Made by a program: the position numbers and the translations under genes
Notes under the pieces: model-generated
What the model was told of the DNA's origin: nothing
The model's database searches: none
The model's input: the letters and a program-made list of their open reading frames with translations, nothing else
Virus record (IMG/VR): IMGVR_UViG_2645727555_000005
Location: 1 to 19,035 of that record
Length of the DNA stretch: 19,035 bases
Direction: 5' to 3' (one strand)
DNA from: a virus
Lineage: Duplodnaviria; Heunggongvirae; Uroviricota; Caudoviricetes
In this document: positions 1 to 17,946 of the stretch, in pieces
Layout: each line of letters begins with the position of its first letter
How positions within the stretch are numbered: the first letter of the stretch is position 1

Positions 1-319
1 GTTCCGTTCATATGAGCAAAAGTGGTGTTGAAGAAACATCCGTTTTGTGATGTTTTTTTAATCTTTTTGGGGTTTTAATTCCTATCGATCAAGTGTGCGG
101 GCACCCAGCAATTACGAGAAAGAATTAGCCGTGTTTTGGGCGACGTTATTACGCCAGATCATCATAAACAAGCCGAGAAAAGTGGCTTGGAAAGGTGTCA
201 CCTTGAGGCGGCATTAAACATTAAGCCGGGGCATACGCTTGGCATTATTGATGCACTATTGGTTCATAAGATGGCCAGGGCTTTATTGCCGCTGGTGGCT
301 GAAAAGCATGAGGCGGACC

Positions 320-604
320 ATGCCAACGAAAGCTGAGTTACAGGCGCGCATAGAGATTCTTGAAAAAGAGAATGCGAGTCTAAAAGGAATGCTGGCGCGG
401 GCGGAAAGGGAATTATCAGGCAAATTATTGCCAGAAGAGCTGCCACCAGCAGATATACCTGATCGAGTGTCCTGGTGGATGAAGTATTTCCGTGCACCGT
501 GGGAGGCGTTTTGGTGCTACGACCATCGCAGATGGTGTGATGAGCTTGATAGCAGTTTCCCCTATTTTGCGGAAGGGAACTCTTGCCCTGAATGTAGGAG
601 TTAA
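320..604 (+). CDS. hypothetical protein, coiled-coil N-terminus with C-terminal Cys/His cluster
   Basis: Same frame as track ORF 239..604. GAGG 6 nt upstream of ATG at 320; ATG at 308 is an alternative start. Heptad-like N-terminus (ELQARIEILEKENASLKGMLARAERE) and C-terminal CYDHRRWC...CPEC cluster. Function not recognised. Confidence 0.4.
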   Translation: MPTKAELQARIEILEKENASLKGMLARAERELSGKLLPEELPPADIPDRVSWWMKYFRAPWEAFWCYDHRRWCDELDSSFPYFAEGNSCPECRS

Positions 605-834
605 TGATGACCGGCGAGCTTTATTTTAAAATGTTTCTCGTTAGGAGTGCAGTCAAAATTTTTGGGCAATACAGGATCGAGAGGAATGCGATTAGGCATA
701 GCTAATTCCTTATTAACTGATTGGCAACGAGGTTACGCTGATCCGTTGGTGATGAATAGTAGCAAAGCGCACAAAATCATCTGCGGTGGTTGATGTACAT
801 AACGCGTTTGCACCAAAGGTGTCTCTTTAATGTA

Positions 835-854
835 TACTGTATAAATGAACAGTA
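835..854 (+). promoter_or_regulatory. LexA (SOS) box upstream of humD
   Basis: TACTGTATAAATGAACAGTA fits CTGT-N8-ACAG exactly; ends 20 bp upstream of the humD ATG and overlaps a TATACT -10-like hexamer. Confidence 0.6.
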
Positions 855-873
855 TTGTTGAGGTTAAAACGCT

Positions 874-1263
874 ATGGGCTTCCCTTCTCCTGCGGCGGAT
901 TATGTTGAAAGCAGAATTTCTCTTGATCAGCAACTAATCAGGCATCCATCAGCGACATACTTCATGCGGGCGGCAGACAGCCATCACCGTGAAGGAATAT
1001 TGCAGGGTGCTTTGCTGGTGGTCGATTCCTCACTTACTCCGGTTGATGGTTCGCTACTTGTCTGCGCTATGGAGGGTGAATATCGCATAAAGAGATACAG
1101 GAAGTATCCGCGCCAGCACCTGGAGGATTTAAGCACCGGGAAGAAAGAGGCGTTACCAGTAGATGACGATGGATGCACGGGCAGTAATGCTGTTTTTGGT
1201 GTGATCACTCATGTCATCAATGATGCCCGAAGTGGGGAGTTTGATGATTGTCCGGTTATTTAA
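874..1263 (+). CDS. humD: UmuD'-like translesion-synthesis accessory protein (HumD-like)
   Basis: 129 aa. Begins GFPSPAADYVE, the position of the processed UmuD' N-terminus, and continues with the S24-peptidase-fold core (SATYF...LLVVD...FGVITHV). P1 HumD has the same pre-truncated architecture (from memory). Confidence 0.85.
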   Translation: MGFPSPAADYVESRISLDQQLIRHPSATYFMRAADSHHREGILQGALLVVDSSLTPVDGSLLVCAMEGEYRIKRYRKYPRQHLEDLSTGKKEALPVDDDGCTGSNAVFGVITHVINDARSGEFDDCPVI

Positions 1264-1298
1264 GCTGCAAAGAGCTGGTGCTTTATGCCTGTGAAGTT

Positions 1299-1330
1299 TA
1301 TAATTGTGTACACATAACGAGTACACGAGG
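1299..1330 (+). promoter_or_regulatory. phd-doc promoter/operator
   Basis: TATAAT at 1299-1304, then palindrome GTGTACAC (1306-1313) and half-palindrome GAGTACAC (1319-1326), then GAGG RBS (1327-1330). Matches the autoregulated Phd operator arrangement. Confidence 0.6.
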
Positions 1331-1335
1331 TGTTT

Positions 1336-1557
1336 ATGCGATCCATTAACTTCCGTACCGCGCGCGGCAACCTTTCTGAAGTGCTCAACAATGTTGAAGC
1401 CGGGGAAGAGGTTGAAATCACCCGCAGAGGCCGTGAGCCAGCAGTAATTGTCAGTAAGGCTACTTTCGAAGCCTACAAAAAAGCGGCGCTGGATGCTGAA
1501 TTTGCATCCCTGTTTGACACCCTGGACTCCACCAACAAGGAACTGGTTAACCGATAA
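1336..1557 (+). CDS. phd: Phd antitoxin (prevent-host-death)
   Basis: 73 aa, [39 protein letters not shown]..., essentially the P1 Phd sequence as recalled. ATG at 1336 preferred over the track GTG at 1330 because of RBS spacing. Stop overlaps doc start (TAATG). Confidence 0.9.
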
Positions 1558-1937
1558 TGAGGCATATATCACCGGAAGAACTTATTGCGCTTCATGATGC
1601 GAATATAAACCGCTACGGCGGCCTGCCGGGAATGTCAGATCCGGGTAGGGCAGAGGCCATTATCGGGAGAGTTCAGGCCAGAGTTGCCTACGAAGAGATC
1701 ACCGACCTTTTCGAAGTCTCCGCCACCTACCTGGTGGCTACAGCGAGAGGGCATATATTCAATGATGCCAATAAGCGTACCGCGCTAAACAGTGCGCTGT
1801 TATTTCTACGCCGTAACGGGGTGCAGGTATTTGATTCACCTGAACTGGCAGACCTTACTGTAGGCGCTGCGACTGGCGAGATATCTGTATCTTCTGTCGC
1901 CGACACGTTACGTAGATTGTATGGTTCTGCGGAGTAG
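1557..1937 (+). CDS. doc: Doc toxin (Fic-fold kinase, death-on-curing)
   Basis: 126 aa with Fic-type motif HIFNDANKR; near-identical to P1 Doc as recalled; translationally coupled to phd. Confidence 0.9.
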
Positions 1938-1941
1938 ATTA

Positions 1942-2139
1942 ATGGCACGTAAATACAACAAGTTGTCCCGTGAAGCGTTAAAGATGCTTCTTGATGGCGT
2001 GAGTCGCCGCGAGGTAAAGCAATACCTGGTTGGTAAGCAAATTGGTGCCAGGACCGCTATTGCTGTGTTATGCCGTCAGGAAATGGTTGTGCTTAAACAG
2101 AGAATGCTTGGTAGCAGACAAAGTGCTTCCAGTATTTGA
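1942..2139 (+). CDS. hypothetical small basic protein (65 aa), possible DNA-binding
   Basis: ATG at 1942 with GGAG 7 nt upstream, directly after the doc stop. Basic, helix-rich sequence (LSREALKMLLDGVSRREV...). Followed by terminator hairpin. Confidence 0.45.
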   Translation: MARKYNKLSREALKMLLDGVSRREVKQYLVGKQIGARTAIAVLCRQEMVVLKQRMLGSRQSASSI

Positions 2140-2142
2140 AAA

Positions 2143-2171
2143 GAAGCCCGCCATACCAAGCGGGCTTTTTG
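2143..2171. terminator. bidirectional intrinsic terminator between convergent operons
   Basis: AGCCCGC (2145-2151) / GCGGGCT (2160-2166) stem, 8-nt loop, T5 run on the plus strand and A/T-rich run on the other. Lies between the stop at 2139 (plus) and the stop at 2172 (minus). Confidence 0.6.
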
Positions 2172-2948
2172 TTATTTCACCTCTTCTGCCGCTGTATCAT
2201 TGGACTGTTCTTCTTTGGCCCGTTCTGCAATCGCCGCACGGCATTTCGCCCTGGCTATAGCGATTGCTTCAGCTCGCACATCGTCTGGAATCGTTGACGT
2301 GATATACATATCCAGTTCTTCGGCACGGAATACTGTTTGGTCCAGATATTCGCGTAGCATCCAGGTAAATTCGAAATCACACGCGATAATCTCTGCGCTA
2401 CCTTCTGCACCATTTGGGAAATGAATAAATGCCTGTTTAGCCAAACCGATAACACGACATGCGGTTGCCAAAACAGCGACAACCAGGTTTACATTTTCAC
2501 ACGCTACGGGCTGATTAACGCCGGAGATTACTCCATTTAACTGTCGGTTATATGGAAGGTAGTTTGAGATGCGTTCTACGCGCCATGTGCCAGTCAGGCT
2601 GCCATTTTTAAAGATAATTGGTGTAACGGATAGCCCAAGCTCGCGTATAAGTCGTTGCGCTATAGCAGGATCATTAAACAGGTCTAATGCTACACATTCG
2701 AAAGACTGCGCAAGGGCAAACAGTTCTTCCAGAGAGTAGTCTTTGCCCCTGGCGGTGATGTAACGACGAACGCCGCTGTCTGCATCACTCCATATAGCTA
2801 CGCCATGCTCTTCATTCAGCTCTTCATTAAAGCCGAGATACGTCATGATAGTGCGTTCAATCGTGTCAAACGGCAGTGACATGTCGGCGTTAACAGCCAC
2901 CAGCAGGCCATTACGCAAGCGGTATTGAATTGTTTTGGTGCTTTCCAT
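2172..2948 (-). CDS. hypothetical protein (258 aa), last gene of the dre-downstream operon
   Basis: Long ORF with GAGTGA RBS-like sequence 6 nt upstream; 6-nt gap from the preceding gene; acidic Ala/Glu-rich C-terminal tail. No motif recognised. Confidence 0.7.
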   Translation of the reverse strand: MESTKTIQYRLRNGLLVAVNADMSLPFDTIERTIMTYLGFNEELNEEHGVAIWSDADSGVRRYITARGKDYSLEELFALAQSFECVALDLFNDPAIAQRLIRELGLSVTPIIFKNGSLTGTWRVERISNYLPYNRQLNGVISGVNQPVACENVNLVVAVLATACRVIGLAKQAFIHFPNGAEGSAEIIACDFEFTWMLREYLDQTVFRAEELDMYITSTIPDDVRAEAIAIARAKCRAAIAERAKEEQSNDTAAEEVK

Positions 2949-2954
2949 GTCAAA

Positions 2955-3605
2955 TCACTCCACTACAAACCAGTCACAAGCCAGTAAATCATCAACAGAC
3001 GGCAACCAAACGCTGTCCATATTTTGTGCATCTTTCAATACGAAATGGTCACCATAAGGAACCTGAATGTCGTGTAAATTGACGCTCCCAGCGAGAACTA
3101 ACCAGCAGAATTGCTTTTCGCCTTTCCACTCGCGTCGAGCTACATTTTTTCCTTCTTTCAGCCACATTAGCGCATCAGAAAAGTCGGCTGCTTCAAGGTC
3201 GATTTCCTCTTGCTGGGTAGTGGTACCACCAGCAGAAATAGTTACGCTCCCGGTAATATTAATCATCACGCCGTTGTCATCCGTAATGATGACCGTGGTT
3301 CCATTTTCGGAGGCGTCGTTAACCAGGCCATAGCATTCCTCAAATGGTTTCTCCGGGGCATAGAACAGATAACCGTTTTCATAAACGATCAGATACCCGC
3401 CAGTTTTTGGTCGGTGTTTTTGTAAAAACATTGCGTCAACACAAACTGTTGCCCCTTTTGGTTCAACGAGTTCAATGCAGCCCCAAAGTGGGGCATCAGT
3501 TACTCCGAAAATAACAACATTTTTGATTTTCGATGCACTAACGTTTTTGTGAGCTTTGTATTTGGGAAGGAACTTAAAAAGCTCTTTCGTTGCCATGTAA
3601 TTCAT
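2955..3605 (-). CDS. hypothetical protein with C-terminal DUF2829-like domain
   Basis: 216 aa. C-terminal ~75 aa (FSDALMWLKEGKNVARREW...LLACDWFVVE) matches the DUF2829 pattern (A..W.K.GK.V.R..W ... DW.hhE). AGGAAAGG RBS directly upstream. Confidence 0.7.
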   Translation of the reverse strand: MNYMATKELFKFLPKYKAHKNVSASKIKNVVIFGVTDAPLWGCIELVEPKGATVCVDAMFLQKHRPKTGGYLIVYENGYLFYAPEKPFEECYGLVNDASENGTTVIITDDNGVMINITGSVTISAGGTTTQQEEIDLEAADFSDALMWLKEGKNVARREWKGEKQFCWLVLAGSVNLHDIQVPYGDHFVLKDAQNMDSVWLPSVDDLLACDWFVVE

Positions 3606-3619
3606 AGCCTTTCCTCTGC

Positions 3620-4114
3620 TTAAAACTTTGCGTACTGAAGCGGTGTGCGCTTGATTTCAAAGTGGTCTTCCGATGTGCTACCAAAGCCACCAGTACCACG
3701 TTCCGTTTCGTTGAGTTCCTCAACCTCGACTAGTGAGACTTGTTCAACACGCTCAAAAATGCCTTGCATGACAGCCATTCCAGGCTTGAGACGAACGACT
3801 TCCCCGCCTGGATCAGTAATCAGTTTTGCCATGATTTCACCGCGATAATCAGAGTCGATAATTCCTACGCAGTTAGCCAGGCGAGTATGTTTTTTGCAGC
3901 CCAATCCGGAGCGCGGATAGAGTTTCAGACACCAGCCGGGCGGGATCTCCATAGCCAGTCCGGTGTACACCCACCAGCTTGAGGAAATTGCACCATTGCT
4001 ATCGACGCATGGTTTTATTTCAACAGCCTCAAAATCCATCGCCGCCGATCCGGAGGTGGCATAAGCTGGAAGTTTTGCTGCCGGATGTAGGCGTTTCACT
4101 TTTACGTAAATCAT
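3620..4114 (-). CDS. dut: dUTP diphosphatase (trimeric dUTPase family)
   Basis: 164 aa with all dUTPase motifs in order: YATSGSAAMD, PRSGLG, GIIDSDYRGEI, MQGIF, RGTGGFGSTS. Start overlaps upstream stop (ATGA). About 15-aa C-terminal extension beyond motif V. Confidence 0.85.
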   Translation of the reverse strand: MIYVKVKRLHPAAKLPAYATSGSAAMDFEAVEIKPCVDSNGAISSSWWVYTGLAMEIPPGWCLKLYPRSGLGCKKHTRLANCVGIIDSDYRGEIMAKLITDPGGEVVRLKPGMAVMQGIFERVEQVSLVEVEELNETERGTGGFGSTSEDHFEIKRTPLQYAKF

Positions 4115-4587
4115 TGTTTTTTAGCTCTCTGCGTGAAGGTGTAAACCCGACGTTTGATATGTGGAACGGTGGGAACAGGAAGACAGGAACTTTCAATAAC
4201 TCCTTGCTCCTCCAGCGATCGCACCGCCCGCAAGAACTGCGACGTGTCGCCGCCAAACTGGCGGGCATAGGTGCTGCCGTTATGAAGTATTTGAGCTATT
4301 ACCCGAGCTTTTGTCTGGCTGTCACGATATGCGAATAGCCGCACGGCCTCTTCTGGCGCAATCGCTAACTGATAGCCTTTCCCGGCACGGTGTCGAATGA
4401 ATCCATGCGCCAGTAGGTTTTTGAGTTCGTTACGAGTGCGAACAGTTCCGTAATCCAGGAAGTGTGGATTGATAACGACTGGCTTAAACCATTCCGTAGG
4501 TGCTTTAGCTAATAGAGTTAACAGATTCCCGGATAATTCTGGATAGGAAGATGGGTAACAATTCAGAGATGGGTAATAAGTTTTCAC
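4111..4587 (-). CDS. hypothetical protein with winged-helix-like segments (possible transcription regulator)
   Basis: 158 aa. C-terminal FLRAVRSLEEQGVIES...KRRVYTFT resembles a MarR/PadR-type recognition helix plus wing; a second similar segment (LKNLLAHGFIRHRAGKGYQL) lies upstream. ATGA overlap with both neighbours. Confidence 0.6.
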   Translation of the reverse strand: MKTYYPSLNCYPSSYPELSGNLLTLLAKAPTEWFKPVVINPHFLDYGTVRTRNELKNLLAHGFIRHRAGKGYQLAIAPEEAVRLFAYRDSQTKARVIAQILHNGSTYARQFGGDTSQFLRAVRSLEEQGVIESSCLPVPTVPHIKRRVYTFTQRAKKQ

Positions 4588-4928
4588 CGACGCCCCCTTG
4601 CAGGATATCGACCTGCATTAGTATCCGGTGCAATAAAGCCGGTAGTGGGGCGAGTGAAAGCAAGATTAATCTTCTCGACCATAGTGCGATAATTTTCCTG
4701 ATAGTGGGCCAGGAGTTTTTCGGCGGCAATGATGGTTACTTTCCGGACGTAGCTTTCTGCTTCCGCCAGATTTCGCCAGTTTTTTTCGAGGGTAAACACA
4801 GGGACGGCCTCAAGCCCGGTCATGATGCCGAACACAACGACAGCATGACTGTTCTTAACACCAGCGGCGAAGGTTACGGTGTAACCATCCACCTTGAAGC
4901 GTCTTGATTCCGTGATTTGACTCTGCAA
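4584..4928 (-). CDS. hypothetical protein (114 aa), first gene of the dre-downstream operon
   Basis: TTG start at 4928 preceded by a strong AGGAGG 5 nt upstream; ATGA overlap with the next gene. Confidence 0.55.
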   Translation of the reverse strand: MQSQITESRRFKVDGYTVTFAAGVKNSHAVVVFGIMTGLEAVPVFTLEKNWRNLAEAESYVRKVTIIAAEKLLAHYQENYRTMVEKINLAFTRPTTGFIAPDTNAGRYPARGRR

Positions 4929-5001
4929 AGCACCCTCCTAAATAGGCGAGGGTACTTTACAGCAAAGGCGTTAATCTAAAAAGATGTGTTAGAAATTTAA
5001 T

Positions 5002-6030
5002 TTAAGAATCCATCAGGCGGCTATTAGCCCCCACAGACACGCCGCCACGGCGAAGATACCGCATAAGTGTTTCCGGTTTCTTCCAGGTTCCTTCCTGCAT
5101 GATCTCCACCATAGACACCTGCTTTTCAGCCATATCAATAGCGGCCCCGACGCGTGCACTATGCCCGGTCCACGTCCGGTATCTTCCTTTGTTTGGCGTA
5201 GCATCTCTTTTATTCAGCAACACCCAGGCGTCGCTGAATATTTTCTCCATTGCAGGTGCAGTAAGGGGCGTTGTCGTGAGCCTGGCCTTATTGCTACGGT
5301 GTATCGGCGGGAACAGCACTGCGTCAGGATGTTCGCGAAGCCCGGAAACATCCAGCCAGTCATTCAGCACAGCGGTAGTGCGACGGGAAAGCACCTTATC
5401 AAGCCCGGCGGCGGTCGTTATTGTCTTCGTGTGTGAAATATGTAGCGTGACAGTGTCACCTGTTTGGTCCAGATCTCCTACACGAATACGCGATATTTCC
5501 GACATACGCATCAGCGTATTGTATGCAACAAAGAGAAAAGCCCGGTTGCGCAGGTCCACCAGCCGTTCTGACCTGGACAGCAGGACGTCGAGCAGTTTCA
5601 GATCGTCCCACCGCAGCGGTATAGCCTGGCCTGTTCGTTCGCCTTTTTCAGTTGCCGCTTCGCGCCGGATGCGCCGCATAGCCAGAGAAACACTTTTATC
5701 ATCCGAAAGTGGTGGAAGGCCACAATGCGAAAGCAGCATGTTCAGCATGGCGTAGTGCTTATCAATGGTGGTCGAAGCCAGATCGGCATCATGCAGCTGA
5801 AGAAAATACTCGCGGGCCATTTCTGGTGAGATCGGAAACCAGGCAAGCTGGCGAGCGTGACACCAGCGCGCCCAGGAATGAAACACCAACCGGAGGTCGC
5901 GCAGAGTATTCGGCGCATAAGCCCCCTGGTCATTCATGAACCGCATAAAGTTTTCTGCGGCTTCCTGGTACTCTTTGCCAATGTTGCGCAGAAAACCACC
6001 GGAACTGCCAGAGATAATTAATTCACTCAT
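5002..6030 (-). CDS. dre: Cre-family tyrosine site-specific recombinase (Dre-like)
   Basis: 342 aa, collinear with P1 Cre. Catalytic positions conserved: Arg in AYNTLMRMSEISRIRVGD (Cre R173 region), H-x-x-R (GHSARVGAA), Trp (EGTW), Tyr nucleophile (MRYLRRG). Arm-binding regions diverge from Cre, consistent with altered site specificity. Confidence 0.92.
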   Translation of the reverse strand: MSELIISGSSGGFLRNIGKEYQEAAENFMRFMNDQGAYAPNTLRDLRLVFHSWARWCHARQLAWFPISPEMAREYFLQLHDADLASTTIDKHYAMLNMLLSHCGLPPLSDDKSVSLAMRRIRREAATEKGERTGQAIPLRWDDLKLLDVLLSRSERLVDLRNRAFLFVAYNTLMRMSEISRIRVGDLDQTGDTVTLHISHTKTITTAAGLDKVLSRRTTAVLNDWLDVSGLREHPDAVLFPPIHRSNKARLTTTPLTAPAMEKIFSDAWVLLNKRDATPNKGRYRTWTGHSARVGAAIDMAEKQVSMVEIMQEGTWKKPETLMRYLRRGGVSVGANSRLMDS

Positions 6031-6182
6031 GAAACTATTTCACCTCTATATACAGATGACGCTACGCGAAAAATATAAAAATGACAGGGTAGCTATAAGT
6101 TAATTTTCAAAATACAAGCCTTTGATTCGAGGCACGTATTTTCAGTGATGTCAACACTGTTCATCTACACATGATTATAGCC

Positions 6183-6214
6183 TAACTTTAAATAATGCCA
6201 ATTATTTAAAGTTA
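6183..6214. other. rox: rox-type recombination target site
   Basis: TAACTTTAAATAAT-GCCA-ATTATTTAAAGTTA: two perfect 14-bp inverted arms around an asymmetric 4-bp spacer. Outer arm bases resemble loxP (ATAACTT...AAGTTAT). Lies 152 bp upstream of the recombinase start. Matches the 32-bp rox site of Dre as I recall it. Confidence 0.85.
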
Positions 6215-6370
6215 TAAAATGGCGATTTTTTTTAATCCATCACAGATTGATTCTGACCAGTAACACGTTGCCTTCATGGTCTTTAATTTGCGAAGTGTGG
6301 TTTATACAGTTGGTTTTCTAAAATTGATGACAAAAAATCACAGTTCGATCCTTTACTCACTCTGTTATTC

Positions 6371-6384
6371 GACATAAATTTGTC
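6371..6384. promoter_or_regulatory. dyad element GACA-N6-TGTC in promoter region of the 345-aa gene
   Basis: GACATAAATTTGTC with AAATTT core, 40 bp upstream of the ATG at 6425 and overlapping a TTGTCA -35-like hexamer. Operator candidate only. Confidence 0.3.
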
Positions 6385-6424
6385 ATAGTAATTTTATGTT
6401 AGAAAACTAAATCGAGTAGGAATA

Positions 6425-7462
6425 ATGAGTAAGAAGTCGATCGAGAAAGAGTACAAACGGTTCCTGCAAACCGCTGAACGGTGGAAAGAGCTGGTGGTCG
6501 CAAACTCTGTTTTCCATGATACCAGTTATGCTGGCGAGGAATTCCGCCATGTTGCATTAACGCATGACCAAAACATATTAGAAGAAGCTGAAAAATGTCT
6601 TGCTGAATGGAAAGCCTTCGTTGACATGTGTCGCGATGCCGACGGCAAAGCGTCGAACATTGTTGAGTCTGTATATTCTCCGATCCCATTCATCATTGAG
6701 GACACCAATCAAAGCACGCATGTTGTTGTGCAAAGCGCTACAACAACACGTACATTTACACGTGAACAATTGCTCAAAAAATACGACAAAATCATAAAGA
6801 AAAGCCTGAAAAATAGGGTTTTTTCTCAAATCGTAGGTGCTCTTGAAGAAGAACAGCGCTTCTTTGAAGCTGAGCCTGAAGGCGAGATCTACCGGGCGCG
6901 TAAAGAGGCATATACAGATGTTGTGCTGACAACAAACATCGAAGGCAGCAATGCCCTTTCTCGCTTTAGAGTTGGCGCACATGGCGCATTGGTTTTCGCA
7001 AGACTACCGAAGACAACGATCCCCGTTGTCAATAATGTTGGTGAACGCCGGAGCATTACAATTTATTCTGGCGTCGAATCGGTACCTTGCAGCCTTCTCG
7101 GCGATTTTAACTTATATCGTGTTCGTGACCTGGAAAAACACCAGCCAAGCTACGTTGCGAAGTCGTACATCTTAAGGAACATCGATATTCGCAATGAAAG
7201 CCTTAAGCAGAAATCCGCTAAGATGCTGGAGGATGCCGATCCGGCTATTCGCCATATCATTGAGCGTAAGATACGTACATCACGTGAAGCAATGGCAAGG
7301 CTGGATAAAATGGATCTGGAATTGTTAGACGTAATGATGGCCTCTGGAGACGACCTGACCGGCATTAAACTAAATGAAGCTCGTAAAAAATACGGCAAAG
7401 CAATCGAAGAACGTTACGGATACACATTCCCCCAAACGCAGTACGCCGCGAAGCTCTGGTAA
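6425..7462 (+). CDS. hypothetical protein (345 aa) in the immunity-region slot
   Basis: ATG with AGGA RBS 6 nt upstream; own promoter region and own terminator. Lys/Asn/Ile-rich, lower GC than neighbours. No HTH or catalytic motif recognised. Convergent with pacB, divergent from dre across rox, which is the P1 c1 position by synteny. Confidence 0.8.
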   Translation: MSKKSIEKEYKRFLQTAERWKELVVANSVFHDTSYAGEEFRHVALTHDQNILEEAEKCLAEWKAFVDMCRDADGKASNIVESVYSPIPFIIEDTNQSTHVVVQSATTTRTFTREQLLKKYDKIIKKSLKNRVFSQIVGALEEEQRFFEAEPEGEIYRARKEAYTDVVLTTNIEGSNALSRFRVGAHGALVFARLPKTTIPVVNNVGERRSITIYSGVESVPCSLLGDFNLYRVRDLEKHQPSYVAKSYILRNIDIRNESLKQKSAKMLEDADPAIRHIIERKIRTSREAMARLDKMDLELLDVMMASGDDLTGIKLNEARKKYGKAIEERYGYTFPQTQYAAKLW

Positions 7463-7471
7463 TCACAACTG

Positions 7472-7497
7472 GCCCCGCATCGCGGGGCTTTATATAT
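7472..7497 (+). terminator. intrinsic terminator after the 345-aa gene
   Basis: GCCCCGC (7472-7478) / GCGGGGC (7482-7488) stem with 3-nt loop, followed by TTTATATAT. Overlaps the pacB stop codon on the opposite strand. Confidence 0.6.
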
Positions 7498-8998
7498 CCA
7501 GATCTGGCATTTCGATATCCGCCAGAACCTGATCTCGGAAAGTTGCCATTTCGGCACCAATATCTTCATTAGCAGGCACATAGTCCACCAGCATAGTGAA
7601 GCAGTAGGTATCCCATCGGTCAGGCGATTTGATGTTTAGCTTTTGCCGCATGTGCTCTTTGCGCATCATCGCCATTTTCCCTTCCTCATTCAGTAAAAAG
7701 GGGATTTTTGACGCTTGCTCTGCCGTTTTAGGGTCACTGTCTATCCGCATACGCCCTGACTTTATGGCATCACGCGCCATAATATTTGCGTAGGCACGCT
7801 GATTAACAAATCGCTCCCTGTCTTTGTTCGCAAACATGGGTTTTCCCCACCGAATACGTACCGGGTTCGCACCACGACGCACCAACTGCGCACACGCATC
7901 AGAACCAAAACCATCGGCATCAACCGCGATTGTTATATTCGGGTATTTTTCCGGCGTACATTCGTTATATATGAAGTCAGCAAAGGCCAATGGGTCCATA
8001 GTGCCAGGCATCTCCATTACCTTAAAGTTAACAACGCGCCGCTTATCCCTGTGACCAGATACCTTGCAGATGTTGAGGACCGACTTATCTCGCCCATTAC
8101 CAACGTCAGCCGTTGCCACCCATCCCCAGTTTTTCTCCAACAACACCTTGCGGCGAGCTGCGCGATCGCATTCATCACGACCAAGCAAATAGCCGTTAAT
8201 TTCTCGTGGGAACTGACCAAGCACCTTGACCATGTACTCAATAGAATCGCGCCCGCCATATTCCAGAAGCTTCTGCTTGATGAATTGTGGTGTGACGAAC
8301 GGTGATTCTTCCGAGTTAAGAACAATTGCTGTCCAGATCCCTTTCGGGTTGTCTGGGGTTTTTGCTTGAGAATGGTGCGAATCGTAGAAATAACCACTTG
8401 GCCTTGTTGGCTGGGATAGCATCAACATCCGGTTATCTTCTTCAGTAAGAGCACCGGTCATTACGCCGATCGCCTTATCAGATATACCAGATGCTTCATC
8501 CAGAATTAGAAGCAAATGTGCCGCATGTTCCCCCGCCAGCGCTTCTTCGTTGCCGAGTCGATAACCTTTGCAGAGAACTTCCCAAATCCCCTTACGGGAG
8601 CGCTCATAAAACATGGTGTCAGAGAGGACAAAATAGGTCTGCAACCACCCATGACGCTTAACTGCATTCGCCCAATACTGTTTAACGTATTTGAATACGC
8701 CTGTTTTTACCTGGCCTATCTTGTTAGCAACAATGATGACACGGGCATCGGGGAACAGGATCATAAAAATCAACAGCAACATCGCGGTAAGGGACGACTT
8801 CCCCGTTCCGTGTCCGGACGTGACGGTCGTCCTACTCCCCGTTTCCTGCACTGACTGAATGATCTGCTGCTGCTGGTGGGAGGGGAACATCCCAAAAATA
8901 TCGACAACAGCCTGGGTAAAGTTGTAGCGGTATTTGATTACCATATCGCGCCAGCGTGGATCGCTGGTGACGCATTTAATCTTGCGCCCGCCAGCCAT
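7490..8998 (-). CDS. pacB: terminase large subunit (PacB-like)
   Basis: 502 aa with Walker A GHGTGKS near the N-terminus and an acidic nuclease-type C-terminal half. Start overlaps pacA stop by 1 nt. P1-type order lpa-pacA-pacB. Confidence 0.9.
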   Translation of the reverse strand: MAGGRKIKCVTSDPRWRDMVIKYRYNFTQAVVDIFGMFPSHQQQQIIQSVQETGSRTTVTSGHGTGKSSLTAMLLLIFMILFPDARVIIVANKIGQVKTGVFKYVKQYWANAVKRHGWLQTYFVLSDTMFYERSRKGIWEVLCKGYRLGNEEALAGEHAAHLLLILDEASGISDKAIGVMTGALTEEDNRMLMLSQPTRPSGYFYDSHHSQAKTPDNPKGIWTAIVLNSEESPFVTPQFIKQKLLEYGGRDSIEYMVKVLGQFPREINGYLLGRDECDRAARRKVLLEKNWGWVATADVGNGRDKSVLNICKVSGHRDKRRVVNFKVMEMPGTMDPLAFADFIYNECTPEKYPNITIAVDADGFGSDACAQLVRRGANPVRIRWGKPMFANKDRERFVNQRAYANIMARDAIKSGRMRIDSDPKTAEQASKIPFLLNEEGKMAMMRKEHMRQKLNIKSPDRWDTYCFTMLVDYVPANEDIGAEMATFRDQVLADIEMPDLDI

Positions 8999-10362
8999 TA
9001 ATCATCCTCCGGCGGTTCTATCGCGATATCATCATCTCCGGCGTCATACCCTGCATCAGATGCATCATAATCACCGTAAATTTCAGCCGTTGCCGAAGGG
9101 TCAATATCCAGCTCTTCGTCGTTGGCCTCGAATTCTCCAGCTTTACGCTCGCCATTGCGGTCGTAATCTCCGCACCCCAATTCTTCAACAATGGTTGCCA
9201 CATCCGCCCGGCGCTCTGCCAGCCATTGCGGATGGTTAGCCTGAAGCGTTGCAAACTCCCTTGCCTCTTTGTCCAGCTGTTCATCATCAACATCATTGAC
9301 GTCAGAAACAGGTGGTTCGAGAAGAGTGATAGCTTTCGCCGCGCGCGCCGCGAGGATAGCCGGGACGCTGACCCCCTGGCGCTCGATGTATTCAGCAACA
9401 CCGATATCATCCAGTTCCTCGCGCTCACGCATACGTATAGCGGCGGCGATAACTCTGGCAGCGCGTGCGTCAGCGCCAATGCGATATTCAATCTCTTTGC
9501 CACGCTGTTCGGCCTGTAGGCGTGCTAATTCGAGTTTTTCTCTGGCCTCAGCCTCTTTGAATGCTTGCTGGCGAGCGCTCTGACGAAGCTTTTCATCCCC
9601 CTGTCGCAGCTTTTGTTCGGACTGATATATAGCTGCCAACCTACTGATAAAATCATTCATGTAGTAGGCCGCGTCACTGATTAGACCGAGAAGGCGCTGC
9701 CCAGGGTGCATTCCTTCTGGCTCTTTATCGCCCAAGGCGTCTATTTCCGCCTGTAGACGTTCGGCCTCCTGATCAACAATGCTTTGATACTGAAGTGCGC
9801 GCTCTTGCGCCATTTGAATTGCTAACCGCAGGTGTTCTTCTGCGCCGTTCTTCATCATATCGCGAGCCACATTCGTAGTGGGCAATGTGGCACGCTGCAC
9901 AGCACCGCCAGGGATCATTGCTGAAGATCCCTCAATTTTTGGGGCGCTTTTATCTTCTTCGGGGATCATTTTCGCCATTTTTTCGCGCAATGGTCTCCTG
10001 ACAGATTCTTTTATCTCATTGTTATTATTTGCATTATTTTCATGATCCGAAGTTTTCTTTCTCGGCATACTTCGGAAAGAACCTGCGCCCTGCGAATTGT
10101 CAATTTCTGTAAATTTTGTTTTTTCTGCACCCTCTTCCAGCTTTTTTGTTGCTCTTCCCGCCCGTTTTTTTTCAGGTGATTTGGTGCTTTTTTTTGTTGT
10201 CTTTACCTGCGACCGCACCTCATTTTTTTTCATATTGAGATGCTTTCTGGCTGTATTGAAGCTAAGGCCATGCTCCTCACAGTATTCCTTTACAGTGATC
10301 CCTTTTTCTTCACGCAACGCTATAAAGCGGGCGCGGTGCTCCTCCCAATTAACCAGACTCAT
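8998..10362 (-). CDS. pacA: terminase small / pac-recognition subunit (PacA-like)
   Basis: 454 aa. N-terminal HTH-like segment (WEEHRARFIALREEKGITVKEYCEEHGLSFNTARKHL) resembling the P1 PacA N-terminus; Lys-rich linker; central coiled coil; acidic C-terminus. ATGA overlap with lpa. Confidence 0.8.
   Translation of the reverse strand: MSLVNWEEHRARFIALREEKGITVKEYCEEHGLSFNTARKHLNMKKNEVRSQVKTTKKSTKSPEKKRAGRATKKLEEGAEKTKFTEIDNSQGAGSFRSMPRKKTSDHENNANNNNEIKESVRRPLREKMAKMIPEEDKSAPKIEGSSAMIPGGAVQRATLPTTNVARDMMKNGAEEHLRLAIQMAQERALQYQSIVDQEAERLQAEIDALGDKEPEGMHPGQRLLGLISDAAYYMNDFISRLAAIYQSEQKLRQGDEKLRQSARQQAFKEAEAREKLELARLQAEQRGKEIEYRIGADARAARVIAAAIRMREREELDDIGVAEYIERQGVSVPAILAARAAKAITLLEPPVSDVNDVDDEQLDKEAREFATLQANHPQWLAERRADVATIVEELGCGDYDRNGERKAGEFEANDEELDIDPSATAEIYGDYDASDAGYDAGDDDIAIEPPEDD
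9900..10050. other. candidate pac cleavage region (GATC hexamer cluster inside pacA)
   Basis: TGATCC-type hexamers on opposite strands at 9913-9916, 9964-9967 and 10044-10047, plus GATC at 9926, TGATCA at 9770 and TGATCC at 10297, flanking an A/T-rich core (10000-10040). P1 pac is a cluster of Dam-methylatable TGATCA/G hexamers inside pacA. Confidence 0.3.
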
Positions 10363-10751
10363 AAAGCAACACCACGCTTTTTAACGGCGGCATTCCACAG
10401 CTTATTCGCCATGTCCACCAGCTCTCGTTGCTCTTTTCGCGCCTGTTCGACTGATTTCCTGCTACAGTTTTTAACCAGTAAGCTACCGTATTCAGGCGTG
10501 CGCCCGCGCACCTTGAACTGATATCCGTTCAGACCATGTAGCCAGTATTTTCGTGGATACACACGATCATCCAGCTCACAGATTGCCCTGCTTGAACGAA
10601 CAAAATGACGAATGATGTTAGTTACACTTACTCGTGAAACATGGAGATGAGGGTATTTTTCTTTGGCGAGAGTGGTAATTTCAGTGACTGTCAGATAGCA
10701 GTCAGCCCTGATCATGATATCCGCAATTTCTGCGCTGCTGATTTGTTCCAT
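10359..10751 (-). CDS. lpa: late-promoter-activator-like protein (Lpa position)
   Basis: 130-aa ORF immediately upstream of and overlapping pacA, as lpa is in P1. TATAAT-containing promoter region upstream. Assignment is by synteny only. Confidence 0.5.
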   Translation of the reverse strand: MEQISSAEIADIMIRADCYLTVTEITTLAKEKYPHLHVSRVSVTNIIRHFVRSSRAICELDDRVYPRKYWLHGLNGYQFKVRGRTPEYGSLLVKNCSRKSVEQARKEQRELVDMANKLWNAAVKKRGVAL

Positions 10752-10859
10752 TAATCCCCCGGGCAGGAAATGACCGAGGGGATGATAATGAGAATGTTAA
10801 AACTGTATAGACTGGTAAAAAGATGATTATATTAGAAAATTAATATTAAATACCTAACA

Positions 10860-11252
10860 CTACCAGCGAGACAAACGAACAACATGTTTCACTTTTGCGA
10901 TCCACTTTCCGCGATAACTATTGATTACGGCCTGTGCCAGCTTCAAATTGGCTTCAAAATCAGCCTTACTACCATCAGACTCCACCAGCATTCCTCCATC
11001 TATTTCTGGTAAACATAGATAATCCTGCTCAACCTGCAGCGGCATTGATGGCTCTCTGAATGGCGTTACTTGCTCTGCTTTCCAGCGAAATCTAACCCTC
11101 ATCCCCCTGGTGGTCATTACTAGATAGCCTGTTATAGTGCTTTTATGGCCCACATCAGTACGCGTGGCATTGCATGACACGATCTTACAGTTAGCGATAG
11201 ACCACTCCATATTGGTGGCCTGTTGAGTGCTTAATTTGGTAGTCCCGTACAT
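10860..11252 (-). CDS. hypothetical protein (130 aa)
   Basis: ORF whose start overlaps the stop of the upstream DUF2829-like gene by 1 nt; no motif recognised. Confidence 0.55.
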   Translation of the reverse strand: MYGTTKLSTQQATNMEWSIANCKIVSCNATRTDVGHKSTITGYLVMTTRGMRVRFRWKAEQVTPFREPSMPLQVEQDYLCLPEIDGGMLVESDGSKADFEANLKLAQAVINSYRGKWIAKVKHVVRLSRW

Positions 11253-11827
11253 CAGAAAGCCTCCCAGTCAGTCGCGATAATATCCACACCAGTTGCAAAC
11301 CAGTCTGTCTGCGCCTGTAAATCCCCATTCATCATTACCAAGCGAGGCATCACCATCACATCGCACCCTTCCACAATATCGAATGCCTCTTCCGGTAAGA
11401 ATTCGAAGAGCTTTTCTTTGCTGCCAATGCTGCCACGGAACATCGATATATAGCTCCCTTTAGGCCATGATGTCCGCCGGGCATCAAGCCCTTTCATCAT
11501 CCAGTAAAAAGCCGAGGAAAAAGGGATATTCTTTTTGCCAATGATTACATTATTCGCTTCTGTGTACTTCAGGAACTTAACTAACCTTACCATTGACTCG
11601 GATAACGCAACGTATGGCTCATGATTGATTGCTGACACGCTTACACCGTGCAATCCAACGCTTACCACTGTCATATCGCCGCTCTGTGCGGTTTCGATAT
11701 TGACGCCTTTGCGAACTAATGAGGCGTAAAGTTCCTCTCGCTTTTGGGTCCAGCGTTCCCGCTTCCCTATGAAGTCACTCAAAATGAGATCTTCTTCTGC
11801 ATGTGCGTTATCGTTCGCCATTAACAT
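11252..11827 (-). CDS. hypothetical protein with C-terminal DUF2829-like domain
   Basis: 191 aa. C-terminal FSSAFYWMMKGLDARRTSWPKGSYI...DIIATDWEAF fits the same DUF2829 pattern as the 216-aa protein at 2955-3605. Near-palindrome CATCTCTCGG...CCGATAGAGATG at 11861-11890 just upstream. Confidence 0.65.
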   Translation of the reverse strand: MLMANDNAHAEEDLILSDFIGKRERWTQKREELYASLVRKGVNIETAQSGDMTVVSVGLHGVSVSAINHEPYVALSESMVRLVKFLKYTEANNVIIGKKNIPFSSAFYWMMKGLDARRTSWPKGSYISMFRGSIGSKEKLFEFLPEEAFDIVEGCDVMVMPRLVMMNGDLQAQTDWFATGVDIIATDWEAF

Positions 11828-12282
11828 AACGTCTCCTTTTTACACGCGCGACCATCTCTCGGTTAAACCGATAGAGATGTCGAAACTTCGTATTAATTAA
11901 GGGTTACAGCCTGAGCGGCTATATGATGAATTGAAAGGAGTTGTGGCGGTGGTGCCTCCACCTGCCAGGTCAGCCACGCCCGGCGACGACACTTATCAGA
12001 ACCTCAATGAATGAAAATGGCTTCGTCACGAGCGCATAGCCGCAATTACCACAACGGAAACGGCGCTCGCGTTAATTAAACGCCTTTTCCTGTTGTGCGC
12101 CGTACTCTTCCGGCTGTCACACCGAATCGCCAGGATGGTGAGTCCTCGGTCCGACGATATGAACGGGGCTTGCACATTCCGGCTACCTGGTTTGTTGCCT
12201 GAGCTAGGGGCAAGGTTCCCCCCTTTTAACGTCACCAGACCGCTAACGACGCATGTGCCAGACGCCGTGTTACAACCAAATG

Positions 12283-12358
12283 TGGTGGCCCCTACCGGAC
12301 TTGAACCGGTGACCGTGCGATTATGAGTCGCCAGCTCTAACCACTGAGCTAAAGGGCC
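12283..12358 (-). tRNA. tRNA with CAT anticodon, most like tRNA-Ile2 (lysidine, AUA decoder); elongator Met not excluded
   Basis: 76 nt incl. encoded CCA: GGCCCTT TA GCTC AGTGGTTA GAGC T GGCGA CTCATAA TCGCA CGGTC ACCGG TTCAAGT CCGGT AGGGGCC A CCA. G1-C72 pair, so not initiator. Closely resembles E. coli ileX as recalled. Confidence 0.85.
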
Positions 12359-12495
12359 AGATTACTGTTAATTCCGCTTACGCTTTTTGCCAGAACCGCG
12401 TAAGGCTTTTGCCGCTTGCTCGACCCCATATGCAACCACCAGCAAAAATAAAAATGTCCAACCAGGGTTCTTATCGGCAAACGCCCAAAAATTCA

Positions 12496-12819
12496 TCACT
12501 TACAGCCACCTTGCATTTCCTTGGATAATTCATTGATTTTAGTGCTCAATAAGTAATCAAAATAAAGATAAAACACAAAAGTAACGATAGTGCTTAAAGT
12601 GTCTGAAATTGCGTATTTCAGCTCAGGAAGCATGACAAAGCAGACAAATAGCGGAAGAAATAACTGCACTATGCACAGGCTCTTCTTCCACAACCATCTA
12701 TATCTGAAGTCTGACAACAAAAACTCCATTGCTTGAAACTTTATTAGATTGCGGTGCCTGGTGCCTCCAGGTGACGTTAACCAGTTAACAATTAACGTCG
12801 GGATGTTTGACTTAACCAC
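12496..12819 (-). CDS. possible small hydrophobic membrane protein (start uncertain, GTG 12819 or ATG 12729)
   Basis: Track ORF; the portion from the internal Met (MEFLLSDF...) is strongly hydrophobic. No convincing RBS. Located between tRNA genes. Confidence 0.3.
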   Translation of the reverse strand: MVKSNIPTLIVNWLTSPGGTRHRNLIKFQAMEFLLSDFRYRWLWKKSLCIVQLFLPLFVCFVMLPELKYAISDTLSTIVTFVFYLYFDYLLSTKINELSKEMQGGCK

Positions 12820-12979
12820 TAAGGAGGATTGTTTTAACTGTTCCGCGTGCGCTTAGCCGCATTCACCGCAATGGTAAGAGCACTTGGCTGGCTGGGCGGC
12901 GATGACGCCTGTACGCATTTGGTGATCCGGTTCTGCTTCCGGCATTCGCTTAATTAGCCAAATACTCTTAACGTTGCGA

Positions 12980-13066
12980 TGGCGGAGAGTAATGGAATCG
13001 AACCATCATCGCTTGCGCAATGGGACGGTTTTCAAGACCGCTTGAGCACCATGCTCCCTACTCTCC
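12980..13066 (-). tRNA. type-II (long variable arm) tRNA-like gene, anticodon TGA (Ser)
   Basis: 87 nt incl. CCA. 7-bp acceptor GGAGAGT/ACTCTCC, anticodon arm GCGGT CTTGAAA ACCGT, T-arm GATGG TTCGATT CCATT, discriminator G. D-arm is atypical (GAGC/GCTC stem, 5-nt loop, 3-nt linker), so needs a tRNA scan. Confidence 0.55.
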
Positions 13067-13261
13067 AGTGATTGTGGTGGTCGGTGCTGATCTCCGACAC
13101 AGGGTTGTAGCAAGCCCCGCAAAGCGCGCACTACTGTAGTTGCGGCACATCAGCCTGTGCATTCACCACAATGTTGAGAACACTGGTTGTCACGCGGCAA
13201 CGCAACATTTATTCATAGATTGGGATATGACCCCGTTACGCCAATGTTCTCAATATTATGT

Positions 13262-13337
13262 TGGTGCCGGTTAACGGACTTGAACCGCTGGCCATTCGCT
13301 TACAAAGCGACTGCTCTACCAACTGAGCTAAACCGGC
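13262..13337 (-). tRNA. tRNA-Thr (anticodon TGT)
   Basis: 76 nt incl. CCA: GCCGGTT TA GCTC AGTTGGTA GAGC A GTCGC TTTGTAA GCGAA TGGCC AGCGG TTCAAGT CCGTT AACCGGC A CCA. Canonical cloverleaf. Confidence 0.9.
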
Positions 13338-13341
13338 AATT

Positions 13342-13428
13342 TGGTGGGGAGTGATGGAGTCGAACCACCCGAGTCGCAATGACAGTAGATTTACAGTCTA
13401 CCCCGCTACCCCTACGGACTAACTCCCC
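13342..13428 (-). tRNA. type-II tRNA-Tyr (anticodon GTA)
   Basis: 87 nt incl. CCA. Acceptor GGGGAGT/ACTCCCC, anticodon arm GTAGA CTGTAAA TCTAC (same loop as E. coli tRNA-Tyr), long variable arm, T-arm GGTGG TTCGACT CCATC. D-arm spacing off by 1 nt from canonical. Confidence 0.75.
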
Positions 13429-13433
13429 TAAAT

Positions 13434-13510
13434 TGGCGATGGTGGGCGGATTCGAACCACCGACCGACAGCTTAGAAGGCTGCTGCTCTATCCTACTGAG
13501 CTACACCATC
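13434..13510 (-). tRNA. tRNA-Arg (anticodon TCT, AGA decoder)
   Basis: 77 nt incl. CCA: GATGGTG TA GCTC AGTAGGATA GAGC A GCAGC CTTCTAA GCTGT CGGTC GGTGG TTCGAAT CCGCC CACCATC G CCA. Canonical cloverleaf. Confidence 0.85.
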
Positions 13511-13964
13511 ACTTGCCGGGTACGTCTCCGGCGAGGGCTTCCACCTCCGTATGCTTTTCGGCGCACCGCGCCCTGGCTGCAATTCGGTAACAGGGGATGC
13601 ACAACCCTGGCTTCCAGCGTGATTAGCGCCTTCAGCATGACGGGATATACCCGTTACAAGACATTATCCCAGAAAGCCATTAACCAATGGCTGTTACGCG
13701 GGAGGGACGTAACAGGTAAGGGCGCTGACCAGAAAGACCTGACCCTTCTCATTCATCTGGTTAATCACACCAGCGCCCTTGCCTGTTATGCCTCCCCGTT
13801 CCCTAATACACAGACGGGGACACTCTGCGGTCGATTTTTTGACGGGGGACGACTCATACCCCGTGGCGTCTGGCTTCTTAGGCCGCTACCATCATCAGAT
13901 CATCGTTTGCATTTACTTTAATGGTCGGTTTCTAAACCGCCGCAAAGTCGCTAACCATGACGAA

Positions 13965-13994
13965 AACCCTAAAAAAGCCCACCCGAAGATGGGC
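13965..13994 (-). terminator. candidate intrinsic terminator inside the ORF-free segment (minus-strand sense)
   Basis: On the minus strand, hairpin GCCCA-TCTTCGGG-TGGGC followed by TTTTTTAGGGTTTTCG. Short 5-bp stem, so moderate confidence. Confidence 0.4.
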
Positions 13995-14013
13995 AAATAC
14001 GCTACATCTCACA

Positions 14014-14092
14014 CAAGAAAGAAGCCGACTGCCTGAGCTGGATTCACTTTCAAATGCCCGCTGAAAGGGATCACAAGTCGGCTTCTTTCTTG
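14014..14092. repeat. 17-bp perfect inverted repeat flanking a 45-bp spacer
   Basis: CAAGAAAGAAGCCGACT (14014-14030) and its exact reverse complement AGTCGGCTTCTTTCTTG (14076-14092). Confidence 0.85.
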
Positions 14093-14308
14093 ATGCGGCA
14101 CTCTCTCCGCCCGTCACCGCTCTGTCTCGGTTGTCGCGTTTGCCACGCCAGCCGTAACGAGGTTTAAAGTCTTTGCACGTTTCCATCACTCGACTGCCGT
14201 CTGTGGCTGTTCGTTGCAGCGGGGGTGCCTCCCCCTGGGGATATCCCCGGCCTTACCCCATTCTTTCAAGACACAATGCAAGGCCACATCCGCATAGGTG
14301 CATTACTG

Positions 14309-14373
14309 CAACATTAAGGAGACTCAGGGCAAAAGGTAACCGCCACAAAAATCCCTATGCCTCCTTAATGTTG
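14309..14373. repeat. 13-bp perfect inverted repeat flanking a 39-bp spacer
   Basis: CAACATTAAGGAG (14309-14321) and CTCCTTAATGTTG (14361-14373). Nearby GC palindromes GGGGGTGCCTCCCCC (14221-14235) and GGGGATATCCCC (14237-14248). Confidence 0.85.
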
Positions 14374-14684
14374 AAGATGTGCATTGATGATTAGATGCAG
14401 CATGTACCGTTACTCTCTGCCGGACCATCATCAATGAACACCTTAAAAAGACCTTCCGTGGCTCAACATGTATTGTCGTTTACTCCGCAAAGTGCTCTCT
14501 CTGAAACCACTTTCCGCACTAAACCTACTGAACTTTGGCCTGCACGGTGCCAAAGCGTGCTCTTGCGTTACTATACTTTTCTAACACTTTAATTTGTTAA
14601 ATGCTGGTGGGTGAACAATAACCAATAAGTGACTATCAAGCCCAGCAAGCGAAACGTGGGTACCGCCCACCAGCAAGGAAAATT

Positions 14685-15953: not shown

Positions 15954-16032
15954 TGCTGTTCCCGTCACTTTGTTAAATTAGTTTTCTAATATATTTTATT
16001 AGTTTGATGACGGTATCGGAAGATGCAATAAA

Positions 16033-16060
16033 CAAAAAACCCGCTAATTGGCGGGTTTTT
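16033..16060 (-). terminator. intrinsic terminator (bidirectional hairpin)
   Basis: AAAAAACCCGC TAATTG GCGGGTTTTT: 6-bp GC stem with A-run and T-run flanks, immediately downstream (minus sense) of the stop at 16059. Confidence 0.7.
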
Positions 16061-16385: not shown

Positions 16386-16567
16386 TCATCAGCGCTTGCA
16401 CTTTCCGGGGTTATGTGAACCTTATCGCCAGTAACAATATTGCGAGCTTCAAAACTTCCATTGATACGTTTCGAGATCTCAATACATAGAGCCTGCTGCC
16501 ATGAGCGACGACGAGCGATAGCATTAGTTCCTGCAGGGATAAGTTCTGCCACGTTAAGTAAACGCAA
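16367..16567 (-). CDS. hypothetical small protein (66 aa)
   Basis: TTG start with GGAG 8 nt upstream, 14 nt after the VRR-NUC stop; no motif recognised. Confidence 0.4.
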   Translation of the reverse strand: MRLLNVAELIPAGTNAIARRRSWQQALCIEISKRINGSFEARNIVTGDKVHITPESASADDWEFVH

Positions 16568-16581
16568 AACGATTTCTCCGT

Positions 16582-17473: not shown

Positions 17474-17475
17474 GG

Positions 17476-17910: not shown

Positions 17911-17946
17911 TCAAATTCGGCCCCGGTTGGGGCCGCTCCTTATCTG

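Follow-up and report, generated by a model that had tools for sequence, protein, structure and literature searches.

The stretch of viral DNA analysed here (IMG/VR record IMGVR_UViG_2645727555_000005, positions 1 to 19,035; hereafter the window, 19,035 nucleotides (nt) in all) belongs to a D6-type, P1-like phage-plasmid, and a gene that stands alone in its immunity slot is very likely c1, the master repressor responsible for maintaining the plasmid prophage in lysogeny and for immunity to superinfection. The 345-amino-acid (aa) product is 100% identical over all 345 residues to the C1 protein of phage D6, deposited in 2004 as AAV84948.1 (record AY753669, labelled 'c1, phage repressor protein, similar to the C1 repressor of phage P1') and in 2017, with the complete genome, as ASR76322.1 (record MF356679, labelled 'prophage repressor'). 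By this identity the standalone gene is the already known and correctly annotated D6 c1, not new cargo. A reading of the same DNA from its letters alone (the sequence-only reading) had staked the novelty of the gene on its lacking high identity to a known D6 protein, and complete identity decides that point against it. Also, the gene has been described as a homologue of the C1 master lytic repressor in D6-like Salmonella plasmids (PMC6799933). Its coordinates are as follows.

6425 to 7462, plus strand: c1, putative D6-type C1 master repressor, 345 aa plus stop codon; assigned from the open reading frame (ORF), the identity to D6, the homology to P1 C1 and family PF27008.

Comparison with P1 indicates that the 345-aa gene is c1, a diverged but true homologue of P1 c1. 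BLASTP aligns P1 C1 with the window protein over 240 collinear aa at 21% identity (E 2e-8), and the NCBIfam model phage_rep_C1 (NF041318) matches residues 7-240 on profile positions 8-245 (E 8.9e-6). Two alignments were compared by hhalign, one of nine D6-type proteins that are 43-100% identical (A1) and one of eleven P1-type proteins (A2); they were joined at a probability of 97% (E 1e-10) across 230 columns, with D6 residues 7-241 lying on P1 residues 8-246. In precomputed Pfam annotation PF27008 (Phage_P7_repressor_C1) is common to D6-like and P1-like proteins, and the sequence homology of the P1/P7 C1 family extends over the family core. A Pfam-A scan of the full protein matched no domain because the scanned copy apparently lacks PF27008, and PHROG 1678, which spans the full protein length, carries the label 'unknown function'. 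A hidden Markov model of A1 and A2 run against 1.84 billion representative proteins recovered only 134 clusters of 250-400 aa, a small and continuous family with both P1-like and D6-like forms, to which a word-indexed search with the merged alignment added no further members. Only a single C1-like locus is present in D6 (tblastn). Of the two identities that the sequence-only reading had offered, a highly diverged C1-type repressor is the one supported by BLASTP, NCBIfam, hhalign and PF27008; the comparisons with P1 and D6 C1 that it had suggested gave the values above, and its failure to see a helix-turn-helix (HTH), nuclease or NTPase motif agrees with the empty Pfam-A scan.

The surroundings of the gene point the same way. 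Megablast of window positions 5000-9000 matched Escherichia phage D6, with 98.6% DNA identity to AY753669 at full coverage and 99.1% to the complete genome MF356679. Plasmids of about 90 kb from E. coli and Salmonella match the whole window at 97.5-98.7% over 96-97% of its length, the best being NZ_CP121358 (98.7% over 97%). Since the DNA identity to D6 is 98.6-99.1% and the transfer RNA (tRNA) region is unlike that of the D6 record, the window is, judging from these comparisons, a D6-like plasmid prophage and not necessarily D6 itself. The gene order is dre (5002-6030, minus strand), rox, c1 (plus strand) and pacB (7490-8998, minus strand). The c1 gene is convergent with pacB across a gap of 27 bp, as it is in the P1 record across 24 bp, so that coordinates and P1 record agree with the placement that the sequence-only reading had given to its single ORF, which is ATG-started. 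The layout of the immC slot, with c1 between a lox-type site plus recombinase and a convergent pacB, is thereby present. About 149 plasmids in PLSDB carry the D6-type repressor, with the position of the gene fixed, and the order of recombinase, C1-like gene and terminase is retained at 51%, 44% and even 30% identity of the homologue. The slot begins at the following site.

6184 to 6215, no strand: rox site (target of Dre), upstream boundary of the c1 slot, from the annotation of AY753669 and MF356679 and the sequence.

The accessory immunity genes of P1 are missing from this slot. The distance from rox to the c1 ATG is only 209 bp and therefore leaves no space for coi, imcB and imcA, and tblastn of the P1 proteins against D6 and the window found no homologue of Coi, ImcA or ImcB below an E value of 1. 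The slot thus holds one ORF where P1 has c1, coi, imcB and imcA, as the sequence-only reading had stated; these three genes upstream of c1 are a feature of the P1 immC region and not a trait of the protein family. Short ORFs between rox and c1 are unconserved, and one of them (6276-6377, 33 aa), considered as a coi substitute, was set aside because its region is unconserved. In D6-like Salmonella plasmids, Lxc was not detected (PMC6799933).

A repeated asymmetric motif provides candidate operators for the repressor. In k-mer counts the commonest 10-mer of the 91-kb D6 genome is TGTTAGAAAA, one copy of which ends 10 nt upstream of the c1 start codon. The asymmetric motif core TTTTCTAACA was counted 12 times in D6, where about 0.9 copies would be expected, and for the 9-mer TTTCTAACA, with the same observed and expected numbers, the observed count was reached in 0 of 100 shuffles of either half; in the window this 9-mer occurs five times against 0.20 expected (0 of 200 shuffles). 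A position matrix trained on the exact sites converged on 19 D6 sites with the asymmetric consensus AwwTTArTTTTCTAACAyAww, about 20 bp long, and 17 of the 19 matches fall in non-coding DNA, which makes up 10.2% of the D6 genome. The D6 sites precede c1, lpa, repL, ref, the c4/icd-antirepressor operon and a second icd-antirepressor operon, and further ones upstream of hrdC-dcm-dmt, pdcB, pmgS, simB, orf52 and orf117. Chi-like words (GCTGGTGG and variants) are also among the commonest 9- and 10-mers in D6 and related loci.

In P1, C1 binds 22 dispersed, asymmetric 17-bp operators with the consensus ATTGCTCTAATAAATTT and controls repL and lpa (PMC8546580). This consensus is matched in D6 and the window only at 4 mismatches, never within 3, and the use of P1 operators by D6 is therefore ruled out. 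The D6 sequence AGTTTTCTAACACAAAT and P1 ATTGCTCTAATAAATTT can nevertheless be aligned on a common TCTAA core, and the D6 motif is unlike the one P1 late-promoter box compared (the -22 region of LPpac). From position and from the resemblance to P1 operators, we infer that the motif is probably the C1 operator. Dispersed asymmetric sites at c1, lpa and repL, some of them in inverted pairs, are thus present as in silico candidates, and the set is possibly new; a search of literature text for the operator words matched only unrelated primer sequences. The operator search that the sequence-only reading had proposed was hence productive, with a different asymmetric motif, while its own dyad (see below) and the P1 consensus were not. 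The sites in the window are listed below.

6389 to 6414, minus strand: proximal candidate C1 operator CGATTTAGTTTTCTAACATAAAATTA, matrix score 27.2, exact core at 6397-6405, ending 10 nt before the c1 ATG.
6306 to 6331, plus strand: distal operator-like site with core TTTTCTAAAA (one mismatch), overlapping TTGATGACA, lying about 83 bp from the proximal site in inverted orientation.
10822 to 10867, both strands: overlapping inverted ('bivalent') operator-like pair, located about 83 bp before the start codon of lpa; matrix scores 25.1 for 10822-10847 (minus) and 12.8 for 10842-10867 (plus).
4979 to 5004, minus strand: operator-like site just past the 3' end of dre, upstream of an orf117-like gene (4584-4928, minus); score 28.7, exact core.
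15974 to 15999, plus strand: operator-like site directly upstream of pmgS (14685-15968, minus); score 27.5; D6 equivalent at 10314-10339.
14569 to 14750, plus strand: two operator-like sites, 14569-14594 and 14725-14750, downstream of pmgS.

Both blocks upstream of c1 are kept in the Salmonella Typhi plasmid pK91 (C1 68% identical) and in the related element L009 (51%). L010 (44%) retains the distal block, and before its c1 there is a TGTTAGAAAA core that was recognized by eye and falls below the matrix threshold. The remaining intergenic DNA upstream of c1 has diverged in all three elements, and the 4979-5004 site is kept in all three. No D6-type motif was found in the examined part of a Leclercia element with a 30% identical C1-like protein, as expected if specificity follows the repressor. 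The positions also resemble those of P1, whose record has operators at c1, at coi, in the direction of cre and cra, and 79 bp upstream of lpa; the site 83 bp upstream of lpa in the window has the same orientation as this P1 Olpa. Overlapping inverted pairs sharing about 6 bp occur at three loci (D6 64108-64153 and 80701-80746, window 10822-10867), with the geometry of P1 bivalent operators such as Oc1ab (P1 record).

Two of these related loci have features of their own. The 68% identical c1 allele of pK91 (NZ_CP029871, 10001-11038) is accompanied by operators and dre in a mosaic plasmid typed as conjugative, where pacB is truncated by IS26, followed by qnrS1 and Tn3-family elements; the locus looks like a degraded D6-like prophage still carrying its repressor. 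In Leclercia adecarboxylata pE1_003, positions 9132-9528 upstream of the 30% identical C1-like gene contain repeated TGATCAC-containing inverted repeats, which are possibly operators of a different immunity type.

The protein consists of two parts, a core common to P1 C1 and an extension that is specific to the D6 clade.

6425 to 7147, plus strand: residues 1-241, core common to P1 C1, with a predicted Tus-like alpha+beta fold.
7148 to 7459, plus strand: residues 242-345, predicted all-helical C-terminal extension, D6 clade-specific (A1, hhalign and model).

The residues conserved family-wide (R41, P88, A105, R157, R159, G187 and Y231) are all in the core, and R41, R157 and R159 lie on predicted beta-strands in an AlphaFold2 model of D6 C1 (19-sequence alignment, mean predicted local distance difference test (pLDDT) score 84.9). 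P1 C1 has no counterpart of residues 242-345, hhalign coverage stopping at 241, and about one full-length family sequence in five has the extension (23 of 128). Its helices in the model are H233-269, H276-307 and three short ones, with a conserved MD-EL...SGD-L motif and the D6-clade invariants M296, D297, L300, S307, G308, D309 and L311. A Pfam scan of the C-terminal 108 aa gave no match.

A PDB sequence search with D6 C1 and P1 C1 found no relative. In Foldseek, the D6 C1 model had four matches at E <= 1e-3, which are all Tus-Ter complexes with a probability of 1.00 and E values of 3e-8 to 1e-6; after them came a match at E 0.13. With the P1 C1 model (pLDDT 79.0) these four Tus entries came up again (E 1.5e-8 to 5.9e-8), and they were the only matches below 0.1. 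The two hhalign alignments of the C1 profile with Tus and the Tus profile are collinear and in the same register. By sequence, membership in Tus/Ter was not found, the Pfam Ter family giving no match at E <= 1. The Tus monomer binds its asymmetric site through inter-domain beta-strands, and to our knowledge the P1/P7/D6 C1 family has long been noted as lacking an HTH. A Tus-like fold would explain why the sequence-only reading saw none. We give roughly even chances, on the strength of predicted models, to the broader proposal that the whole P1/P7/D6 C1 family is a structural relative of Tus, in which a monomeric beta-strand DNA-binding fold would have been reused as a phage master repressor, and to which D6 members would add a C-terminal helical domain and a shifted operator (TTTTCTAACA vs GCTCTAATAAA). 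The predicted fold is possibly new: no paper linking C1 with Tus was found in the searchable literature, which took in neither the main papers on D6 and P1 nor the text of the Pfam entry, and the link may already be on record there.

Taken as a mechanism, C1 would bind the candidate motif sites, probably as a monomer by analogy with P1 C1, for which monomeric binding is reported, and would contact DNA through the conserved beta-strand arginines R41, R157 and R159 of a Tus-like, two-domain alpha+beta fold rather than through an HTH. Bound C1 would block the early promoters for Lpa (late-gene activator), RepL (lytic replication) and the antirepressors, and would regulate its own synthesis via the two sites flanking its promoter region. 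Because Coi, ImcA and ImcB are absent, and reportedly Lxc as well, derepression would have to come from the two immI-like antirepressor operons, whose antirepressors in D6 are orf18 and orf82. The helical domain of residues 242-345 may, speculatively, be an interaction or oligomerization module. With this D6-specific domain, no Coi and reportedly no Lxc, modulation of the repressor can be speculated to differ from that in P1.

Several observations count against a repressor function, the operator assignment or the Tus-like fold. The function of D6 C1 has been annotated from homology only, and no experimental work on it was found in the literature. The NF041318 score is 25.4 bits against an equivalog cut-off of 500, which makes the protein a family member and not a P1 C1 equivalog, and a different specificity is therefore expected. 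A promoter scan found no sigma-70-like promoter on the plus strand upstream of c1. The match counts of the matrix are partly circular, as its training sites came from the genome that it was used to scan; the counts of exact cores and the conservation across elements are not affected. The sites at 14569-14750 and one inside pmgM are without an obvious target. As to the fold, the template modelling scores (TM-scores) against Tus are low (0.33-0.45, for predicted models), both C1 models were built from the same 19-sequence alignment, and the hhalign probabilities of the C1 profile against Tus and the Tus profile, 9.8% and 8.7%, are not significant.

One alternative is a C1 homologue whose role has changed, acting mainly as a site-specific DNA roadblock or as a regulator of plasmid maintenance and replication (such as a polar barrier to forks or to transcription), with immunity set elsewhere, e.g. 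by c4-type RNAs and antirepressor circuits. Such a role would accommodate a predicted fold that matches only Tus, a 104-residue domain absent from P1 C1, several motif copies at gene 3' ends or without an obvious promoter, and a D6 without Coi and reportedly without Lxc. It is nevertheless unlikely, given that the sites are placed as P1 C1 operators upstream of c1, lpa and repL, that no other repressor candidate was seen besides the single C1-like locus of D6, and that roadblock activity is compatible with repressor function. The motif TTTTCTAACA could also be real and be bound by another factor, either a host protein or a phage regulator such as Lpa, with C1 recognizing a different sequence; the assignment of the motif to C1 does draw on position and likeness to the P1 operator. 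We regard this as quite improbable. The TCTAA core and the asymmetry are common to the motif and the P1 C1 operator, the motif stands before c1 itself and before lpa at the P1 Olpa position, it is unlike the LPpac box, and it is absent from the examined part of the Leclercia element with the 30% identical C1. In the k-mer counts no comparably strong repeat was seen except the Chi-like GCTGGTGG.

The second identity offered by the sequence-only reading was replacement of the immunity region by acquired cargo, such as a single-gene exclusion or anti-phage defence determinant. The empty Pfam-A scan, the PHROG label, the absence of coi, imcA and imcB, and a GC content slightly below that of dre and pacB could be read in its favour. 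The search of defence profiles that had been proposed for this case returned nothing, PADLOC (PADLOC-DB 2.0) matching 0 families at E <= 1 with the 345-aa protein. The composition is also ordinary. The GC content is 45.6% in c1, 48.0% in the window, 49.2% in pacB, 53.6% in dre and 46.3-46.9% in lpa, orf5 and orf6, and lysine plus asparagine make up 11.9% of the protein against 10.8-11.6% in neighbouring genes, with an ordinary 3.8% asparagine. The marked A/T and Lys/Asn richness claimed for the gene thus shrinks to a marginal difference, with values near those of lpa, orf5 and orf6; the genuinely AT-rich stretch is the 394-bp intergenic region (31.5% GC). In addition, the homology to P1 C1 is significant and collinear with PF27008 in common, the position is fixed in about 149 plasmids and the slot is kept in elements at 51% down to 30% identity, and a matching operator set exists. 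Cargo is on these grounds very improbable, and the gene is best read as c1.

The signals immediately flanking c1, as far as they were recognized, are given below.

6418 to 6421, plus strand: Shine-Dalgarno-like AGGA, 3 nt upstream of the ATG, by direct sequence reading.
7471 to 7497, plus strand: intrinsic-terminator-like hairpin 3' of c1, overlapping the pacB stop codon; the stem (7471-7489) has 8 pairs, 7 of them G-C, and is followed by TTATATAT.
6371 to 6384, no strand: dyad GACA-N6-TGTC, read as GACATAAATTTGTC, at chance level and not conserved.

A good ribosome-binding site and a terminator of its own had been claimed for the gene from its letters, and the AGGA and the terminator-like hairpin are consistent with both. 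The proposals for the promoter region survive in part. The dyad is present, but it is probably not an operator: one match was found where 0.25 is expected, 44 of 200 shuffles have at least one, and its arms are not kept in related elements. Likewise, the -35-like hexamer TTGTCA exists, but a promoter built on it was not confirmed; the hexamer is unconserved, lacks an acceptable -10 at 16-18 bp and has no sigma-70 match. When TTGTCA, TCGACA and TTGATGACA were paired manually with a -10, all spacings were outside 16-18 bp.

Elsewhere in the window, a near-consensus sigma-70 promoter lies on the minus strand at 6174-6201 (TTGGCA, 16-nt spacer, TATAAT; 11 of 12 matches), directed towards dre and with its -35 within the rox spacer. 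It could couple Dre expression to rox occupancy. Five minus-strand tRNA genes (Met-CAT, Ser-TGA, Thr-TGT, Tyr-GTA and Arg-TCT) occupy 12283-13510, while the equivalent region of the D6 record contains tciA and tciB besides plus-strand tRNA genes for Ser, Thr and Asn. Because the tRNA sets differ, the tRNA/moron region between orf6 and pmgS is, on comparison of the two records, a variable segment in the element of the window. Two further proteins have a Tad2-like (Thoeris anti-defence 2, PF11195) C-terminal domain, one of 216 aa encoded at 2955-3605 on the minus strand (E 1.2e-17) and one of 191 aa at 11252-11827 on the minus strand (E 1.1e-9). Their D6 counterparts, orf114 and orf6, are both labelled hypothetical, and the Tad2-like domain is also found in L009 and L010. 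These two proteins may be phage-plasmid-borne anti-Thoeris sponges.

D6-type phage-plasmids are widespread in E. coli and Salmonella, and some of them carry resistance genes. The candidate operator set would provide a way to predict the immunity groups and the C1-controlled genes of these elements. The Tus-like fold, if true, would explain an oddity of P1, namely a master repressor that is without an HTH and acts on asymmetric sites, and would link a phage repressor to a replication-terminator fold.

Compared with known systems, the locus is closest to that of phage D6, with a C1 protein that is the same throughout, the same flanks (dre-rox on one side, pacB-pacA-lpa on the other) and surrounding DNA that is 98.6-99.1% identical, whereas the tRNA region of the window differs. 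P1 and P7 C1 are homologous over about 240 residues, occupy the same slot beside the lox/rox recombinase and are likewise without an HTH. Their asymmetric, TCTAA-core operators are dispersed, single and bivalent, and placed before c1, lpa and repL, as the candidate ones of D6 are. P1 C1 differs in having 283 aa and a short basic tail, compared with the 345 aa and helical C-terminal domain of D6 C1, and in its operator sequence, ATTGCTCTAATAAATTT against the candidate TTTTCTAACA-type of D6. P1 also has coi, imcA and imcB upstream of c1, which D6 and the window are without, and a D6-like plasmid reportedly lacks Lxc (PMC6799933). E. coli Tus (PDB 1ECR, 4XR0-2) provides the only PDB entries matched by the C1 models; its structures are solved whereas those of C1 are predictions, and Tus arrests replication forks whereas the C1 family represses transcription.

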